Below, one piece after another: positions 3,134-61,514 of a stretch of 64,000 nucleotides of DNA. The DNA is from Escherichia coli. Its GTDB lineage: Bacteria > Pseudomonadota > Gammaproteobacteria > Enterobacterales > Enterobacteriaceae. The first letter of the stretch is position 1. Every line of letters begins with the position of its first letter. A program made the position numbers and the translations under genes. Below the pieces are notes generated by a model. It searched no databases and was not told where the DNA came from. It saw only the letters and a list, made by a program, of their open reading frames with translations. The stretch lies in assembly GCF_003018255.1 (NCBI RefSeq), contig NZ_CP027440.1. One strand, 5' to 3'.

Positions 3134-4526
3134 ATTTACGCTGTCTTTTGATCAAATTATTACCATCAGTTGTTTTCAGAAGCATGAACATTGCTGCTGA
3201 AGCAACAGTAATAATGCCCATCGTGATAAACGTATAGTGGAATTGTTCGACTGTCGTTGTGCCTTCCATCCCTTCATAAACGCGAAGGACGGCCGCACTT
3301 ACAGCAACGCCTAAACTGATAGACAGTTGCTGCGTGACCGCCAGAACACTGTTACCGCTGCTGGCGTTGTCATCGGTCAGATCGGCAAGTGTGATGGTAT
3401 TCATCGCGGTAAATTGCGTCGACATAGCCATCCCTAATATAAACAACGGCAAGATCAGCATCCATATCGCCATTGCCGGTGATTGCAAAGAGAACTGAGC
3501 GATCATTAGCCCAATAATCACCGTGATCCCAACTAACGTATGGCGATAGCCCAGACGACGTAAGACTTGGGTAACCATCGATTTTGCAATAATGGAACCT
3601 AACGCTGTCGGTGCCATCATACAGCCGGCAATAAACGCCTGATAACCAAATCCTACCTGTAACATCAATGGCATAAGGAACGGTACACAACCGGTCCCCA
3701 GACGGGTTGCAATATTGCCTACGATACCGATCGAGAAAGTGCGGGTTTTAAATAAATCTAATGAAATTAATGGGTTTGGCGTGCGTCGTGCATGGAGAAT
3801 ATAGAGAAGCAGTAACCCGATGCTGGTGACAATTACCGTCAAGGCAATCCAACTGGCGACAATCTTTTCCCCGAATAGCTCTATTCCGCTTGAGAAGAGA
3901 ACAAGGCTAAGGCCAAACAGCAAAAAGCCAGTGATATCGAATCTGCGTCGTGCGGTGGTGAAATTGGGCATATGTTTGCGCGCGTAAAGAAGGCCCGCAA
4001 TACCTATGGGGATATTGATTAAAAATATCCAGTGCCAGGTTGCCCAGGTGACCAGCACGCCGCCAAGAACAGGGCCTAAAATTGGCCCCACCAGACCCGG
4101 CATGGCGACAAAATTCAATACAGGAAGAAGCTCATTACGAGGATAAGCGCGCAGTAAGGCCAGCCGAGCAACAGGCATCATCATTGCGCCGCCTATCCCC
4201 TGAATAACCCGGAAGACAACCAGCTGTGGTAGCGAGTTAGAAAGTGCGCAGGCCAGAGAACCCAACGTGAACAGACTCACGGCAAGAGTAAATATGCGAC
4301 GCGTACCGAAGCGATCGGCTAGCCATCCGCTTACCGGAATAAGCATCGCCACCGTCAGCGTATAACTGATGATGGCTGATTGCATCGCGAGAGGAGAACG
4401 ATTAAGGCTATGAGCGATTGCGGGTAAGGCGGTATTCAGAATAGTGGCATCAAGTGCCTGCATGAAGAAGGCCATCGCCGCGATCCACGGCAAACCCGCC
4501 ATACTGCGCTTCTTTTTATCGCTCAT
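3099..4526 (-). CDS. hsrA: MFS-family multidrug/efflux transporter HsrA (YieO)
   Basis: 475-aa polytopic membrane ORF, convergent with and slightly overlapping the rbsR 3' end. Confidence 0.88.
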
Positions 4527-54200: not shown

Positions 54201-56747
54201 TTGTACCTCTATATTGAGACTCTGAAACAGAGACTGGATGCCATAAATCAATTGCGTGTGGATCGCGCGCTTGCTGCTATGGGGCCTGCATTCCAACAGG
54301 TCTACAGTCTACTGCCGACATTGTTGCACTATCACCATCCGCTAATGCCGGGTTACCTTGATGGTAACGTTCCCAAAGGCATTTGCCTTTACACGCCTGA
54401 TGAAACTCAACGCCACTACCTGAACGAGCTTGAACTGTATCGTGGAATGTCAGTACAGGATCCGCCGAAAGGTGAGCTTCCAATTACTGGTGTATACACC
54501 ATGGGCAGCACCTCGTCCGTAGGGCAAAGTTGTTCCTCTGACCTGGATATCTGGGTCTGTCATCAATCCTGGCTCGATAGCGAAGAGCGCCAGTTACTAC
54601 AACGTAAATGCAGCCTGCTGGAAAGCTGGGCCGCCTCGCTGGGCGTGGAAGTTAGCTTCTTCCTGATTGATGAAAATCGCTTCCGTCATAATGAAAGCGG
54701 CAGCCTGGGGGGCGAAGATTGTGGCTCCACCCAGCATATACTGCTGCTTGACGAATTTTACCGTACCGCCGTGCGTCTCGCTGGTAAGCGTATTCTGTGG
54801 AATATGGTGCCGTGCGACGAAGAAGAGCATTACGACGACTATGTGATGACGCTTTACGCGCAGGGCGTGCTGACGCCAAATGAATGGCTGGATCTCGGTG
54901 GCTTAAGCTCGCTTTCTGCTGAAGAGTACTTTGGTGCCAGCCTTTGGCAGCTCTACAAGAGTATCGATTCCCCATACAAAGCGGTGCTGAAAACACTGCT
55001 GCTGGAAGCCTATTCCTGGGAATACCCGAACCCACGTCTGCTGGCGAAAGATATCAAACAGCGTTTGCACGACGGCGAGATTGTGTCGTTTGGCCTCGAT
55101 CCTTACTGCATGATGCTGGAGCGTGTTACTGAATACCTGACGGCGATTGAAGATTTCACTCGTCTGGATTTAGTACGCCGCTGCTTCTATTTAAAAGTGT
55201 GCGAAAAACTCAGCCGTGAACGCGCCTGCGTAGGCTGGCGTCGTGAAGTGCTAACCCAGTTAGTGAAAGAGTGGGAATGGGACGATGCTCGTCTGGCAAT
55301 GCTCGATAACCGCGCTAACTGGAAGATTGATCAGGTACGTGAGGCGCACAACGAGTTGCTCGACGCGATGATGCAGAGCTACCGTAATCTGATTCGCTTT
55401 GCGCGCCGCAATAACCTTAGCGTCTCCGCCAGCCCACAGGATATTGGCGTACTGACGCGTAAACTGTATGCCGCGTTTGAAGCGTTACCGGGTAAAGTGA
55501 CGCTGGTAAACCCGCAGATTTCGCCCGATCTCTCGGAACCGAATCTGACCTTTATTTATGTGCCGCCGGGCCGGGCTAACCGTTCAGGTTGGTATCTGTA
55601 TAACCGCGCGCCAAATATTGAGTCGATCATCAGCCATCAGCCGCTGGAATATAACCGTTACCTGAATAAACTGGTGGCGTGGGCATGGTTTAACGGCCTG
55701 CTGACCTCGCGTACCCGCTTGTATATTAAAGGCAACGGCATTGTCGATTTGCCTAAGTTGCAGGAGATGGTCGCCGATGTGTCACACCATTTCCCGCTGC
55801 GCCTGCCTGCACCGACGCCAAAAGCGCTCTACAGCCCGTGTGAAATTCGCCATCTGGCGATTATCGTTAACCTGGAATATGACCCGACAGCTGCGTTCCG
55901 CAATCAGGTGGTGCATTTTGATTTCCGTAAGCTGGACGTCTTCAGCTTTGGCGAGAATCAAAATTGCCTGGTAGGTAGCGTGGACCTGCTGTACCGCAAC
56001 TCGTGGAACGAAGTGCGTACGCTGCACTTCAACGGCGAGCAGTCGATGATCGAAGCCCTGAAAACCATTCTCGGTAAAATGCATCAGGACGCCGCACCGC
56101 CAGATAGCGTGGAAGTCTTCTGCTACAGCCAGCATCTGCGCGGATTAATCCGTACTCGCGTGCAGCAACTGGTTTCTGAGTGCATTGAACTGCGTCTTTC
56201 CAGCACCCGCCAGGAAACCGGGCGCTTCAAGGCGCTGCGCGTTTCTGGTCAAACCTGGGGCTTATTCTTCGAACGCCTGAATGTATCGGTACAGAAACTA
56301 GAAAATGCCATCGAGTTTTATGGCGCTATTTCGCATAACAAACTGCACGGCCTGTCAGTGCAGGTTGAAACCAATCACGTCAAATTACCGGCGGTGGTGG
56401 ACGGCTTTGCCAGCGAAGGGATCATCCAGTTCTTCTTCGAAGAAACGCAAGACGAGAATGGCTTTAATATCTACATTCTCGACGAAAGCAACCGGGTTGA
56501 GGTGTATCACCACTGCGAAGGCAGCAAAGAGGAGCTGGTGCGTGACGTCAGTCGCTTCTACTCGTCATCGCACGACCGTTTTACCTACGGCTCAAGCTTC
56601 ATCAACTTCAACCTGCCGCAGTTCTATCAGATTGTGAAGGTTGATGGTCGTGAACAGGTGATTCCGTTCCGCACCAAATCGATTGGCAACATGCCGCCTG
56701 CCAATCAGGATCACGACACGCCGCTATTACAGCAGTATTTTTCGTGA
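54201..56747 (+). CDS. cyaA: adenylate cyclase (class I)
   Basis: 848-aa [38 protein letters not shown]; start per ORF track (non-ATG, as I recall for cyaA). Confidence 0.95.
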
Positions 56748-56786
56748 TGAGCGTGCCGGAAAGCGAGGCTTATCCGGCATGCAATC

Positions 56787-57107
56787 TTAGCGGAAACTGA
56801 CTGTTTCACCCGCTTGCTGCGTTGCCGCCTGTTCCAGCAAATCCCAGAAGGTTTCGCCGCTACGATCGCAAATCCACTCATCGCCTTTCAGATCAAAATG
56901 GTAGCCGCCCTGTTTGGTTGCCAGCCATACCTGGTGCAGCGGTTCCTGGCGGTTGATAATGATTTTGCTCCCGTTTTCAAAGGTAATGGTCAGTACACCG
57001 CCGTTGATTTCGCAGTCGATATCGCTATCGCCATCCCAGTCGTCCAGACGCTCTTCAATGGTCAGCCACAGTTGATCAGCCAGGCGATGAAATTCACTGT
57101 CGTTCAT
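56787..57107 (-). CDS. cyaY: frataxin homolog CyaY
   Basis: 106-aa acidic [66 protein letters not shown]. Confidence 0.95.
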
Positions 57108-57154
57108 TGTTGTATCCTGTTTTTAAGTGATGGCGGCAGTATAGCGGCATGGGG

Positions 57155-59182
57155 TCAGAGCTTCAAAGTTTGCTCAATGTCTGGTGTTTTGTGGCACTCT
57201 TCCTCCGTCGTCAAGATGATGATGTCATCATTGGATGAAAACATGTTCTGATCCAGATTACGTGTCCTGGCCGGACAGGGCGATGCGGTTCGATAAAGTT
57301 GGCTACCGATCCAGGTATAAACATAGCGATTGTCATAAGCGAAACGTTCGGTGGTTTTCAATGGTCCATCAATAGCAAAAATTTGAATATCATCGCGTAA
57401 ACGGGAAGAGCGCATAAAGTAACCATGGCCTTTCCCGGCGTTAATCCGTTGTTTCAGGAAAGGTGCAGAAGAGTCGAGCGTTATTATTTCCAGGGTGTCT
57501 TCACCAAAAGGAGACAATTTCGCAATGTACAGATGATTTTTGTACTGCGCGACACGATCGGTGATGGGATGAAATGCTTTCGGGTCAATATCGGGGAGTT
57601 TCTCCCATTGACTCCATTGCTGGTCTGTAGAGCGAAGCTTACGCCAGCTAACATCGGTTTCGCCGACGAGAAAAGAGCCTTCGCCATCAGAATATTGAGC
57701 AATGTTAACGGATGAGTTATAGGGGATTCCCGTTGGAATAAACGCACCATCCTCAAGAAGTCTGCCGTCAAGCTCACCACTACGGTAGTTTGCCCAATAG
57801 CCATATCCTGAATCTTTGGTTTTCCATTTCACCCGCACGGCTTTGGTATTGGGAGTTGGGTAGCGCCAAAGCTGTGAGCCATCGAATGCGTAAACATAAC
57901 GATCGTCGTGTGCATACCATTTCTTGTAATGGGGGCTATCGCTAAGGTGAGCCTCATGCTCGTCAGGAACACGATAATCCATCAGGATAAGCGGCCCGGA
58001 AGAATCGAATACCTGGAGGCCATCTTCTTCTTCACCATCAGCTGGTAATTTGGTCAATAAATAGCCGTGAGTTCTTCCCGCGTTAAAGCGTTTATCTATC
58101 ACCAAACCAGGATTATCCAGTGTGACGATATTTAGCCTATTTTCGCCAAATCCCGTTTTTTTGATGGTGTACAGCTTGTCCTGATACTGAGCAACGGTAT
58201 TACTAAGAGGATGAAATTGTTCTGGATCGAGGCCGGGTAGGACTTCTTGCTGGCATTCTGGCCCTTTGCGCCATGAAACAGAGTGTTCCTGCAAAGTGAA
58301 CGCCGCGCAGCTATTTGCCCTATCTTTGTCCAGATTTCCCTGATTCAGCACCTTCCGGTGCAGGCCGCTTTTATCTCGCCAGGTTAATAACGAACCGGGC
58401 ATCCAGCGTACGACAGTAAATGTCTCTGGGTCGGCTTTAAGCTGTTCGCCATTGATTATGATTTTGGTCCGTGTACGGGCTAACGTATCCCAGGGGCCAA
58501 ATGGTACGGCAACGCAGGGGTTAAACGTGGTGGAAAACTTTCCTCGCTGATCCCAGGACTTCTGCGCCAGCACACGGAAACTCTCGGGGTCAGCGAGGCG
58601 ATGTCCATCGACATATAAGAAATTAGCGTCACGTAATATCAGCCCCAGAAAGTCAGGTTTCCAGGGGGAACGGAATTTCACCTGATGCAGCGTTTTAATA
58701 TCTAGACTATTTTCTCCGCCATTGTCATCGGTGCGCGTGCCTTCAAAATAGAGACTGTGTTTATCTGCGGCAAAATCACCCCATGCCTTGAACGAGGCGA
58801 CATCGACGGGAGGTTTGTCTGGCGGGTTTTGCACAACTTCACCCGCGTAGAGGATATAGCGACCATCGCTATGCCAGGAGTAATGAGGATACCAGGCCTG
58901 TGCGCCTTCATAGAGGTAGTCGGTTGTCAGATCAGTCAGAGGAGGTACTTTATCCCATTTGTCTAGTGTTGTCGGGTCTATTAATAAATTGGGTAAACGG
59001 CGCAAACTTTTGTAATTCACGTCAGGAAGAGAAAGATTTGTTTCTTTATAAGGGCGCAGGTATACCACGCCTTTTCCCTGTTTCTGGTAAATATTATGTT
59101 CAGGCGCGGAAAGCCGACATCCCCATGCCGACGATAAAAACAACGAACAAGACAACAAACAAACCACATTGCGAAAGTGCAT
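57155..59182 (-). CDS. secreted protein of about 675 aa built from DKNYY-like repeats (accessory; function unknown)
   Basis: ORF 57155..59212 (685 aa from an upstream GTG); likely ATG at 59182 preceded by AGGA; N-terminus MHFRNVVCLLSCSLFLSSAWGC is signal-peptide-like; recurring motifs of the type DxxxLYxxG...ADPxxF (DKHSLYFEG, DANFLYVDGHRLADPESF, GEQLKADPETF, DDRYVYAFDGSQL, DNRYVYTWIGSQL); Trp/Tyr-rich; family assignment unverified. Confidence 0.7.
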   Translation of the reverse strand: MHFRNVVCLLSCSLFLSSAWGCRLSAPEHNIYQKQGKGVVYLRPYKETNLSLPDVNYKSLRRLPNLLIDPTTLDKWDKVPPLTDLTTDYLYEGAQAWYPHYSWHSDGRYILYAGEVVQNPPDKPPVDVASFKAWGDFAADKHSLYFEGTRTDDNGGENSLDIKTLHQVKFRSPWKPDFLGLILRDANFLYVDGHRLADPESFRVLAQKSWDQRGKFSTTFNPCVAVPFGPWDTLARTRTKIIINGEQLKADPETFTVVRWMPGSLLTWRDKSGLHRKVLNQGNLDKDRANSCAAFTLQEHSVSWRKGPECQQEVLPGLDPEQFHPLSNTVAQYQDKLYTIKKTGFGENRLNIVTLDNPGLVIDKRFNAGRTHGYLLTKLPADGEEEDGLQVFDSSGPLILMDYRVPDEHEAHLSDSPHYKKWYAHDDRYVYAFDGSQLWRYPTPNTKAVRVKWKTKDSGYGYWANYRSGELDGRLLEDGAFIPTGIPYNSSVNIAQYSDGEGSFLVGETDVSWRKLRSTDQQWSQWEKLPDIDPKAFHPITDRVAQYKNHLYIAKLSPFGEDTLEIITLDSSAPFLKQRINAGKGHGYFMRSSRLRDDIQIFAIDGPLKTTERFAYDNRYVYTWIGSQLYRTASPCPARTRNLDQNMFSSNDDIIILTTEEECHKTPDIEQTLKL

Positions 59183-59300
59183 AAAGCCATCCTGGCGCGA
59201 GGTGTTGATCACGAAACTGCTAGCAGAACATAAATCCTCACAAGTAAGCGTAACTCTCGCAGCAAATCGTCACTTTTCAGAATCCATAAAGGTCATCGCT
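59121..59300 (-). repeat. copy A of a duplicated promoter/leader module (5' region of the DKNYY-repeat gene)
   Basis: About 85-90% identical by eye to 60208-60377; includes RBS, ATG and first 13 codons (MHFRNVVCLLSCS). Confidence 0.8.
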
Positions 59301-59553: not shown

Positions 59554-60108
59554 TCAATTCATTTTCCCTGTACCATAAAGTTTATCCTTCACATCCTGCC
59601 GAACGCGGGTCTTGTACCCCCCGTTGTGAAGATCTTCATACGGAGAAAAAGAATCTTTACTCCACCCCAGCAACACTTTATCGCCAGGCATAAAATGCAC
59701 GTGCAGGTAATTTTCTCCCCATTCTCTTTTTGGGAGAGGTAACGTCATATTGCGTTTCTCCAGACGCATTCCAGCATTATACTGTGTACGAGTAGTACTT
59801 AATGTCCATATAACCTCTGCCGTATCCCCACTGACATCACCGCAACAGGTGATTGAACCGCCACCATTCGCAAAAGCATTCGCGCCCGCCACGCCGTTAA
59901 CACTGAATCCCAGTATCGGACGGTCAATTTCACTGTGGATTTCCAGTATCACTCCACCTCTTGGTCCTCCCCATACTGCCTGTCCTATATTCCACAACAC
60001 GACCAGTACTGGAACGACAATTAACGTCCGCCATACCCAGCGCCCCCAGCGGGCATAACCGCGCGTAAGCTTTTGGTCAAATTTTTCCAGTTGGGTAAAT
60101 AGCCCCAT
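59554..60108 (-). CDS. small membrane-anchored protein, DUF3304-like (tentative; accessory)
   Basis: 184-aa ORF; basic N-terminus then one TM helix (TLIVVPVLVVLWNIGQAVWG); Gly-rich segment with CC pair (GVAGANAFANGGGSITCCGDVSGD); RBS gagaagaggga upstream; DUF3304 assignment is from memory and unverified. Confidence 0.6.
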   Translation of the reverse strand: MGLFTQLEKFDQKLTRGYARWGRWVWRTLIVVPVLVVLWNIGQAVWGGPRGGVILEIHSEIDRPILGFSVNGVAGANAFANGGGSITCCGDVSGDTAEVIWTLSTTRTQYNAGMRLEKRNMTLPLPKREWGENYLHVHFMPGDKVLLGWSKDSFSPYEDLHNGGYKTRVRQDVKDKLYGTGKMN

Positions 60109-60150: not shown

Positions 60151-60261
60151 TCACTGGCGACTAAGGTCAGACAACGAAATTTCGTGGTACGCCACTCTCT
60201 TAAAAGTCCCATGCAGGCGATAAGAACAAGACAACAAACAAACCACATTGCGATAGTGCAT
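60151..60261 (-). pseudogene. 36-codon chimeric fragment: 5' end of a paralog of the DKNYY-repeat gene, truncated
   Basis: MHYRNVVCLLSCSYRLHGTFKRVAYHEISLSDLSRQ; first 13 residues match the 57155..59182 protein (one F/Y difference), then diverges and stops 42 nt before the DUF3304-like start. Confidence 0.6.
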
Positions 60262-60377
60262 AAAGCCATCCTGGCGCGAGGTGCCGATCACGAAACTACC
60301 AGCAAAACATAAATCGCCACGTGTAAGCGTTATACTCGCAGCATTTCCTCACTTTTCAGACTTCATAAAGAGTCGCT
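60208..60377 (-). repeat. copy B of the duplicated promoter/leader module
   Basis: Direct repeat of 59121-59300 with a 7-9 bp indel and scattered substitutions; lies back-to-back with the yifL upstream region. Confidence 0.8.
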
Positions 60378-60449
60378 AAACGCTTGCTTTTACGCCTTCT
60401 CCTGCGATGATAGAAAGCAGAAAGCGATGAACTTTACAGGCAATCCATA

Positions 60450-60653
60450 ATGAAAAACGTGTTTAAGGCACTCACTGTATTACTTACTCTCTTCAGCCTG
60501 ACGGGCTGCGGTCTGAAAGGTCCGCTCTATTTCCCGCCTGCAGATAAAAACGCACCGCCGCCGACCAAACCGGTAGAGATGCAAACGCAATCCACGGTGC
60601 CGGATAAAAACGACCGCGCCACTGGCGATGGTCCATCCCAGGTGAATTACTAA
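60450..60653 (+). CDS. yifL: small lipoprotein YifL
   Basis: 67-aa ORF MKNVFKALTVLLTLFSLTGCGLKGPLYFPP with lipobox LTGC. Confidence 0.9.
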   Translation: MKNVFKALTVLLTLFSLTGCGLKGPLYFPPADKNAPPPTKPVEMQTQSTVPDKNDRATGDGPSQVNY

Positions 60654-60689
60654 AAGTCAGTTTCTGTACCCGCGTGATTGGAGTAAATG

Positions 60690-61514
60690 ATGCAGTTCTC
60701 GAAAATGCATGGCCTTGGCAACGATTTTATGGTCGTCGACGCGGTAACGCAGAATGTCTTTTTTTCACCGGAGCTGATTCGTCGCCTGGCGGATCGGCAC
60801 CTGGGGGTAGGGTTTGACCAGCTGCTGGTGGTTGAGCCGCCGTATGATCCTGAACTGGATTTTCACTATCGCATTTTCAATGCTGATGGCAGTGAAGTGG
60901 CGCAGTGCGGCAACGGTGCGCGCTGCTTTGCCCGTTTTGTGCGCCTGAAAGGGCTGACTAATAAGCGCGATATCCGCGTCAGCACCGCCAACGGGCGGAT
61001 GGTTCTGACCGTCACCGATGATGATCTGGTCCGCGTAAATATGGGCGAACCCAACTTCGAACCTTCCGCCGTGCCGTTTCGCGCTAACAAAGCGGAAAAG
61101 ACCTATATTATGCGCGCCGCCGAGCAGACAATCTTATGCGGCGTGGTGTCGATGGGAAATCCGCATTGCGTGATTCAGGTCGATGATGTCGATACCGCGG
61201 CGGTAGAAACGCTTGGTCCTGTTCTGGAAAGCCACGAACGTTTCCCGGAGCGCGCCAATATCGGTTTTATGCAAGTGGTTAAGCGCGAGCATATTCGTTT
61301 ACGCGTTTATGAGCGTGGGGCAGGAGAAACCCAGGCCTGCGGCAGCGGCGCGTGTGCGGCGGTTGCAGTAGGGATTCAGCAAGGTTTGCTGGCCGAAGAA
61401 GTACGCGTGGAACTCCCCGGCGGTCGTCTTGATATCGCCTGGAAAGGTCCGGGTCACCCGTTATATATGACTGGCCCGGCGGTACATGTCTACGACGGAT
61501 TTATTCATCTATGA
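60690..61514 (+). CDS. dapF: diaminopimelate epimerase
   Basis: 274 aa from [25 protein letters not shown] with catalytic Cys motifs (GNGARC, CGSGACA). Confidence 0.95.

Follow-up and report, generated by a model that had tools for sequence, protein, structure and literature searches.

A probable composite cyaY promoter at the junction with a variable DKNYY-type cassette in Escherichia coli

In E. coli, cyaY appears to be transcribed from a sigma-70-type promoter of its own, a composite that would lie across the junction with an inserted accessory cassette, and any read-through from that cassette would be an additive by-product of its landing at this site, with no link to iron-sulfur physiology; to this overall reading we assign a probability of about 60%. 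In the arrangement proposed, sequence ancestral to the Enterobacteriaceae would provide the -10 element, a GC-rich discriminator, a predicted transcription start at about 57131 and an AGGA ribosome-binding site, and the -35 position would be filled by the hexamer TTGAAG, contributed by the final codons of an inserted DKNYY-type gene.

The window, by which we mean the whole stretch of 64,000 nucleotides of E. coli DNA that was analysed, carries according to its ORF list the gene order hemX-hemD-hemC, cyaA (+), cyaY (-), a 685-aa ORF (-), a DUF3304 ORF (-), lptM (+), dapF, yigA and xerC, and is 100% identical to strain DETEC-S792 across 4 kb. The cyaY gene (56787..57107, minus strand) encodes a frataxin homologue of 106 aa (Pfam PF01491 Frataxin_Cyay, E=2.8e-34), annotated as 'iron donor protein CyaY' in the RefSeq record of that 100%-identical strain. 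Its upstream neighbour on the same strand, the 685-aa ORF (57155..59212; PGAP 'hypothetical protein' WP_000611183.1), specifies a chimeric, DKNYY-related and probably exported protein; it ends in a TGA codon at 57157-57155, and the cyaY ATG starts at 57107. The 47 bp between stop and start (57108..57154, minus strand), which read CCCCATGCCGCTATACTGCCGCCATCACTTAAAAACAGGATACAACA, hold the -10 element, the discriminator, the predicted start and the ribosome-binding site. At the far end of the cassette lies lptM (yifL; 60450..60653, plus strand; Pfam LptM_cons, E=2.6e-8), the ancestral divergent neighbour of cyaY. A previous sequence-only reading had placed the TGA 47 bp 5' of the cyaY start, with both genes on the minus strand, and had pointed to a plausible -10 and ribosome-binding site in the gap. 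The spacing agrees with the sequence and the ORF list, and both signals are in place, as TATACT at 57143-57138 and as a Shine-Dalgarno core, AGGA, at 57118-57115 (minus strand), 7 nt 5' of the ATG, where cross-species comparison finds GGA or GGG retained in other genera.

The evidence for a resident promoter comes mainly from 80 Enterobacteriaceae loci, collected in a scan with CyaY and drawn from one genome per species. Irrespective of whether a gene lies upstream, TATACT occurs 27-31 nt (once 38 nt) 5' of the cyaY ATG in 79 of these 80 loci, and an alignment of 51 insert-free species shows all six of its columns to be at least 98% conserved within variable flanks. The hexamer (57138..57143, minus strand), also picked out by a consensus scan, matches the -10 consensus TATAAT at 5 of 6 positions, including A at position 2 and T at position 6, and is followed by the GC-rich discriminator GCCGCC. 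Taken together, this is strong comparative evidence that TATACT serves as the -10 of cyaY, a gene with a promoter of its own regardless of what lies upstream. From the position of the -10 we infer a transcription start at an A situated 7 nt 3' of it (57131, minus strand, corresponding to about 3994083 in K-12), which would give a leader of 24 nt. No entry for cyaY, b3807 or the coordinates was present in the searched supplements of the SMRT-Cappable-seq, Nanopore RNA, Cappable-seq preprint, Conway 2014, Kim 2012, Cho 2014 and Salmonella dRNA-seq studies. No junction-spanning transcript could be retrieved from the published start-site and operon-map supplements searched, and full-text searching, including cyaY together with dapF, found no publication on the cyaY promoter or its upstream junction. 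The discriminator (57132-57137), between the -10 and the predicted start, is itself largely conserved across genera. GC-rich discriminators are typical of promoters repressed by ppGpp/DksA, and by analogy cyaY might be growth-rate or stringently controlled.

At a spacing of 17 bp from the -10 stands the -35-like hexamer TTGAAG (57161..57166, minus strand), which constitutes codons Leu683-Lys684 (TTG AAG) of the 685-aa ORF and matches the consensus TTGACA weakly, at 4 of 6 positions. The consensus scan scores the pair at 9/12, a match that is not above chance by itself (2 found vs 6.0 expected in shuffles) and that draws its weight from cross-species conservation; the Salmonella site falls under the scan threshold. 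TTGAAG or TTGATG is found 17 bp from the -10 in 10 of the 11 loci that bear a cassette or a remnant, and the insert-free loci mostly have CTGCAA at this position (3/6 matches). Citrobacter FP75 keeps GCAAACTTTGAAGC in a different reading frame, with the TGA inside it as the stop codon, and Phytobacter keeps CTTTGATG outside any ORF, so that the -35 motif appears to be maintained independently of a coding role. On the other hand, TTGAAG exceeds the ancestral CTGCAA by a single match, and recent shared ancestry or a recombination breakpoint, rather than selection, could account for its conservation.

Comparison across the family also defines the limits of the insertion. In most of the 80 loci, tblastn shows lptM and cyaY as divergent neighbours separated by about 138 bp that contain no gene, and the spacer measures 130-146 bp in 51 loci; insert-free examples occur in Citrobacter, Salmonella, Klebsiella, Raoultella, Kluyvera, Kosakonia and Enterobacter. 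The gap is occupied by DKNYY-type genes in few species (Escherichia, Pseudocitrobacter vendiensis, Citrobacter sp. FP75, Phytobacter diazotrophicus and Atlantibacter hermannii), and remnants of the cassette are present in Kosakonia sp. S29 and several Escherichia. Followed upstream from cyaY, insert-free and insert-bearing genomes remain homologous to a point a few bases 5' of the -10, the former reading ...CTGCAACG..TTTGTTTCGCG-TTATACT and the latter GCAAACTTTGAAGC(C/T)CTGACCCCATGCCGC-TATACT. On the lptM side homology runs from the lptM ATG through ...AAAAGCAAGCGTTTAGC, with GTTTAGC at its end, and then ceases, which sets the cassette boundary at about 60374/60375; the lptM-proximal part of the ancestral divergent intergenic region (60375..60449, plus strand), recognized by homology with insert-free genera, is the most conserved block of the 138-bp spacer. 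By these alignments, the inserted DNA ends inside the predicted cyaY promoter, between -35 and -10. The cassette array would have entered the poorly conserved stretch of about 30 bp between the back-to-back lptM and cyaY promoters, and the ancestral -35 region CTGCAA would have been lost and replaced upon its entry, along with these ~30 bp of least conserved spacer. An insertion that landed where conservation between the two back-to-back promoters is lowest would explain the arrangement well enough.

Within E. coli the junction is nearly universal, being present in 5425 of 5426 complete genomes (match from 57040 to ~57173), and megablast matches end at 57173-57175 in nearly all of them. The same-strand junction described in the sequence-only reading stands, and it is not specific to the island of this strain. 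At 57173, the upstream edge of GCAAACTTTGAAG and of the -35 block, identity of the window allele to other alleles steps from ~50% to 98.5%, and from GCAAAC to the cyaY ATG 66/67 positions are identical, as against about 50% just upstream. The cassette-derived 3' terminal block GCAAACTTTGAAGCTCTGACCCCATGCCGC (57144..57173, minus strand), delimited by right-anchored cross-species comparison, is near-invariant in E. coli and missing from insert-free genera; among four haplotypes (window, K-12, N68 and GF8), gap and -35 block are identical except for one C/T position just 3' of TTGAAG. The window architecture, an intact 685-aa gene plus a DUF3304 gene, is found in 141/5426 genomes, and a K-12-type spacer of 462 bp in 3837 (71% of E. 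coli); the remainder carry two or three paralogues, some together with a DUF3304 gene. The distance from the end of the last cassette gene to cyaY is exactly 47 bp in every haplotype examined, Nissle 1917 with its two intact paralogues included. In Escherichia, then, the junction would have become fixed and the cassette body would have stayed hypervariable, with 1-3 paralogues with or without the DUF3304 gene, or the 462-bp remnant of K-12; the constant 47-bp distance follows from the fixation of the junction block.

The K-12 interval cyaY-'yzcX'-lptM (b3807-b3808-b4558) is the same locus as that of the window, with the same junction and an identical 47-bp gap, but it contains only a decayed remnant of 462 bp in place of the intact 685-aa chimeric gene and the DUF3304 gene. 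Alignment of K-12 to the window is continuous over 56100-57226, that is, 72 bp into the ORF 3' end, and resumes over 60225-60900. What K-12 therefore shares with the window on the cyaY side is the final ~72 bp of the ORF with its TGA, the gap of 47 bp and the TTGAAG/TATACT pair; the K-12 remnant consists of the cassette 5' module described below fused to those ~72 bp. The PGAP annotation of the remnant is a 'DKNYY family protein' pseudogene, frameshifted and on the same strand as cyaY, whereas the K-12 record itself places yzcX on the opposite strand, overlapping cyaY. Projected onto the window, yzcX (b3808) would occupy 56814-57251 (plus strand), antisense to cyaY, and this ORF is probably spurious. 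The listing of 'cyaY-yzcX' as an overlapping pair, or excludon, by the automated ExcludonFinder survey (PMC12288877), the only item that a full-text search for yzcX returned, follows from this opposite-strand annotation and is an artefact of it.

These distributions bear directly on the view that the two genes form a true operon, in which cyaY of cassette-bearing strains would depend mainly on the promoter or promoters of the upstream gene and would be co-regulated with it. Location on one strand, 47 bp apart and with no terminator between, is what an operon would display, and the last cassette gene keeps that exact distance in all haplotypes seen. Yet the fixed junction block accounts for the constancy of the 47 bp; the -10 is kept by 79/80 species, most of them lacking an upstream gene, so that a conserved gene pairing is missing; K-12 and 71% of E. 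coli at large retain cyaY behind a decayed remnant only; and the accessory protein looks exported and has no iron-sulfur-related domain. We consider dependence of this kind very improbable, and favour a cyaY promoter that operates at the junction itself.

Whether transcription could also enter cyaY from upstream turns first on termination. That no terminator hairpin separates the genes, as had been claimed, is borne out by four approaches. On the minus strand around the junction, a consensus scan detected nothing resembling a terminator, a negative that is not proof by itself, since this simple scan also missed the real cyaY terminator, which lacks a U-tract. A relaxed hairpin scan, which did recover the cyaY terminator hairpin (56751..56782, minus strand, -17.2 kcal/mol) as a positive control, detected no hairpin of -8 kcal/mol or lower between 57250 and 57085. 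The 171-nt junction RNA (57260..57090, minus strand) is less structured than random (z=+0.88 vs shuffles), and no Rfam match was obtained in the gap or the island at E up to 1, by which a known RNA element there was ruled out. The minus-strand terminator prediction that the sequence-only reading had proposed as a check thus yields no intrinsic terminator at the junction. In the K-12 Term-seq data (Adams et al., PMC7815308 supplement), the primary minus-strand 3' end at 3993701, equivalent to window position 56749, falls after cyaY and is the sole minus-strand 3' end listed nearby. A mapped terminator between 57155 and 57108, which had been named as contrary evidence, is likewise absent from these tables: neither the Term-seq nor the bicyclomycin data list a minus-strand 3' end in the interval homologous to the gap, an observation that concerns the pseudogene remnant of K-12 and not an intact upstream gene (PMC7815308).

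Any polymerase that transcribes the 685-aa gene would accordingly run on through cyaY as far as the hairpin at 56782-56751, which would form the 3' end of any transcript entering cyaY. The 47 untranslated nt before the cyaY start are fewer than Rho normally needs to load. Because the gap combines the lack of a terminator with too short a ribosome-free stretch for Rho, read-through from the 685-aa gene into cyaY is plausible and may be taken as the default expectation; it would supplement the expression driven by the cyaY promoter without determining it. A search for transcriptome data from Nissle 1917, which has intact genes at the junction, found none. As a separate observation on the far end of cyaY, the stop codons of the convergent genes cyaA (+) and cyaY (-) are only 39 bp apart, and a single hairpin, at 56751-56782 and devoid of a U-tract, is common to both; K-12 bicyclomycin data list, at 3993834 (window about 56882), a plus-strand 3' end that is Rho-dependent, within cyaY and antisense to it, and on account of this 3' end cyaA transcripts appear to read antisense into cyaY.

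The genes may instead be independent in practice, the cassette being silent or weak (for example silenced as foreign DNA) or its transcripts being ended by Rho or degraded, with a monocistronic, promoter-derived cyaY mRNA as the outcome. No sigma-70-like promoter reached the scan threshold 5' of either cassette gene, and with no site of that quality the upstream transcription may be negligible. The G+C content falls from about 52% in the flanks to 43-46% in the cassette 5' regions, the RNA of the minus strand between 57188 and 57085 has a rut-like excess of C over G (C/G ratio 1.8-2.0), and decay of the cassette in 71% of E. coli has had no visible effect on cyaY. Against independence weigh the terminator-free gap, the 47 ribosome-free nt that an intact, translated ORF would leave, below the stretch Rho normally needs, and the K-12 Term-seq and bicyclomycin tables, which place no minus-strand 3' end in the junction; overall we regard it as unlikely, with some real chance of being correct. 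Should upstream polymerases arrive, they could also do harm, by occluding the cyaY promoter (transcriptional interference) and making initiation lower or noisier. Promoter occlusion by upstream transcription is an established mechanism, and here the putative -35 lies inside the upstream ORF, in a promoter unprotected by any terminator, but transcripts that read through would carry the complete cyaY leader and ribosome-binding site, and net output would probably not be reduced; we give this outcome very little credence. The reading that we retain is a composite promoter from which cyaY would be transcribed with no need of transcription from upstream, and to which any read-through would add.

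The product of the upstream gene offers little reason to connect it with its neighbour. The ORF is a fusion of two tandem paralogues that are separate (~500 aa and ~437 aa) in GF8, 7_14_47A, N68 and Nissle 1917: residues 1-494 share 78% identity with GF8 gene 1, and residues 509-685 share 49% with the C-terminus of GF8 gene 2. It also bears an internal duplication, residues ~305-470 resembling residues ~514-650. It had been labelled a 'DKNYY-repeat gene'. No direct Pfam or NCBIfam match was obtained, with Pfam, including the DKNYY model, searched to E=10, and the label holds indirectly, by way of two BLASTP segments (E=4e-65 at 34% identity and E=3e-50 at 49% identity) shared with GF8 gene 2, which scores 30.2 bits on Pfam DKNYY (PF13644) with a cut-off of 25; GF8 gene 1, at 20.2 bits, is below it. 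Resemblance to that family accordingly consists in a paralogue at the same locus that passes the cut-off and in D-x-R/K-Y-V-Y-like motifs of the 685-aa protein, which, unlike GF8 gene 2, does not itself match the model. To our knowledge the DKNYY family has no known function, and full-text searching for DKNYY gave nothing relevant. The hypervariability of the array at this locus suggests diversifying selection or frequent unequal recombination.

The N-terminus of the 685-aa protein is hydrophobic and signal-peptide-like, ending in ...SAWGC, from which the protein is probably exported. An AF2 model of mediocre quality (mean pLDDT 64.7, pTM 0.44) has an N-terminal helix followed mostly by beta-strand; a Foldseek search of the PDB with this model returned generic beta-propeller proteins at TM <=0.13, which were non-specific and were set aside, and no relatives were found among defence systems (PADLOC) or solved structures (PDB). 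CyaY is cytoplasmic. The proposal that read-through might tie the accessory gene to iron-sulfur cluster physiology finds no support here: the 685-aa protein has no family, defence-system or PDB match, it looks exported, with a mostly beta-strand model and no iron-sulfur-related domain, and the pairing is missing in most genera and decayed in 71% of E. coli genomes.

The remainder of the cassette bears marks of internal rearrangement. A direct repeat of 147 nt, D1, pairs 59145-59291 with 60224-60370 (copies B and A, respectively) at 88% identity. Copy B (59145..59291, minus strand) comprises the leader, start codon and signal-peptide codons of the 685-aa gene, and the repeat thus duplicates the 5' module of the DKNYY gene, with a GTG/ATG start. 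The lptM-proximal copy heads a truncated ORF, a 46-codon copy of the gene start read from the sequence (VIGTSRQDGFMHYRNVVCLLSCS...; 60151..60291, minus strand), which overlaps D1 copy A and is located ahead of the DUF3304 gene. The DUF3304 module would seem to have arrived by insertion into a second copy of the 5' end of the DKNYY gene, or by recombination behind it. As a promoter for the cassette genes the repeated module was rejected, no convincing sigma-70 match being apparent by eye or in the scan. The DUF3304 gene (59554..60108, minus strand; 184 aa; PGAP DUF3304) scores 21.6 bits on Pfam PF11745 (E=3e-4), with a cut-off of 22. Its product also has a weak NCBIfam match to the Tli1a immunity family (E=8.5e-4, far under cut-off), and a related DUF3304 gene elsewhere in E. 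coli (hit H30) adjoins a DUF4123 gene, DUF4123 being a family of type VI secretion (T6SS) effector chaperones. By these similarities the cassette might hold orphan immunity-type genes. It is neither an IS nor a mobile island: its ORFs of at least 50 aa number only two, and it contains no recombinase, inverted repeats, tRNA or boundary repeats, the only long repeat, D1, being internal. Cassette exchange mediated by Xer/dif was considered, with xerC 2 kb away, and rejected, as no dif-like site was found with up to 3 mismatches.

The same gap has been entered in other genera. In P. vendiensis (L016, 1896-3953) a DKNYY gene encodes a protein 91% identical to that of the window and has the same junction, with LptM just 70% identical, and its congener P. 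faecalis (L012) has an insert-free 138-bp spacer; the pattern in P. vendiensis points to a recent inter-genus transfer of the cassette, presumably by recombination in the conserved flanks. In Superficieibacter (L027 and L078, about 3328-3922) an unrelated gene of 197 aa lies in the same lptM/cyaY gap in the same orientation, with a short hairpin and then the conserved TATACT downstream. The divergent-promoter gap seems to be a general landing site for accessory genes. A more specific proposal, which we advance tentatively and consider less likely than not, is that the ~30-bp cassette 3' end (GCAAACTTTGAAGC(C/T)CTGACCCCATGCCGC) is a portable promoter half, kept independently of reading frame as the -35 of an essential-pathway gene, cyaY. 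If so, a hypervariable array of exported-protein genes could be exchanged at the lptM/cyaY gap without disabling cyaY, among strains and among genera (Escherichia, Pseudocitrobacter, Citrobacter, Phytobacter and Kosakonia), and, in the ~29% of E. coli with intact genes, read-through would also tie the dosage of cyaY to the expression of the cassette.

On the reading that we favour, the cyaY promoter of E. coli, K-12 included, would be a composite, its predicted -35 half residing at the 3' end of a gene or pseudogene remnant absent from most related genera, a circumstance hidden in K-12 by the opposite-strand annotation of yzcX. If confirmed, the locus would be a clean illustration from nature of how accessory DNA can take the place of one half of a housekeeping promoter and afterwards reach fixation, and constructs or deletions upstream of cyaY would have to retain at least 66 bp 5' of the ATG.

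The arrangement has counterparts among known systems. Insertion sequences with an outward-facing -35, such as IS1, IS2 and ISAba1, create hybrid promoters, and here, likewise, a -35-like hexamer at the end of the inserted DNA stands at the correct spacing, 17 bp, from the -10 already resident at the downstream gene. It differs from these in having no transposase, terminal inverted repeats or target duplication, in that the candidate -35 belongs to the coding 3' end of an ordinary gene, and in that cyaY already had a working promoter, so that the event would have been a replacement rather than an activation. Read-through operons with an internal promoter are common in E. coli, and the locus resembles them in its same-strand genes, its short terminator-free gap and a downstream promoter in or near the upstream ORF; the upstream partner here is instead a strain-variable cassette, missing in most related genera. 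The arrangement is of an ordinary kind, with an evolutionary twist.
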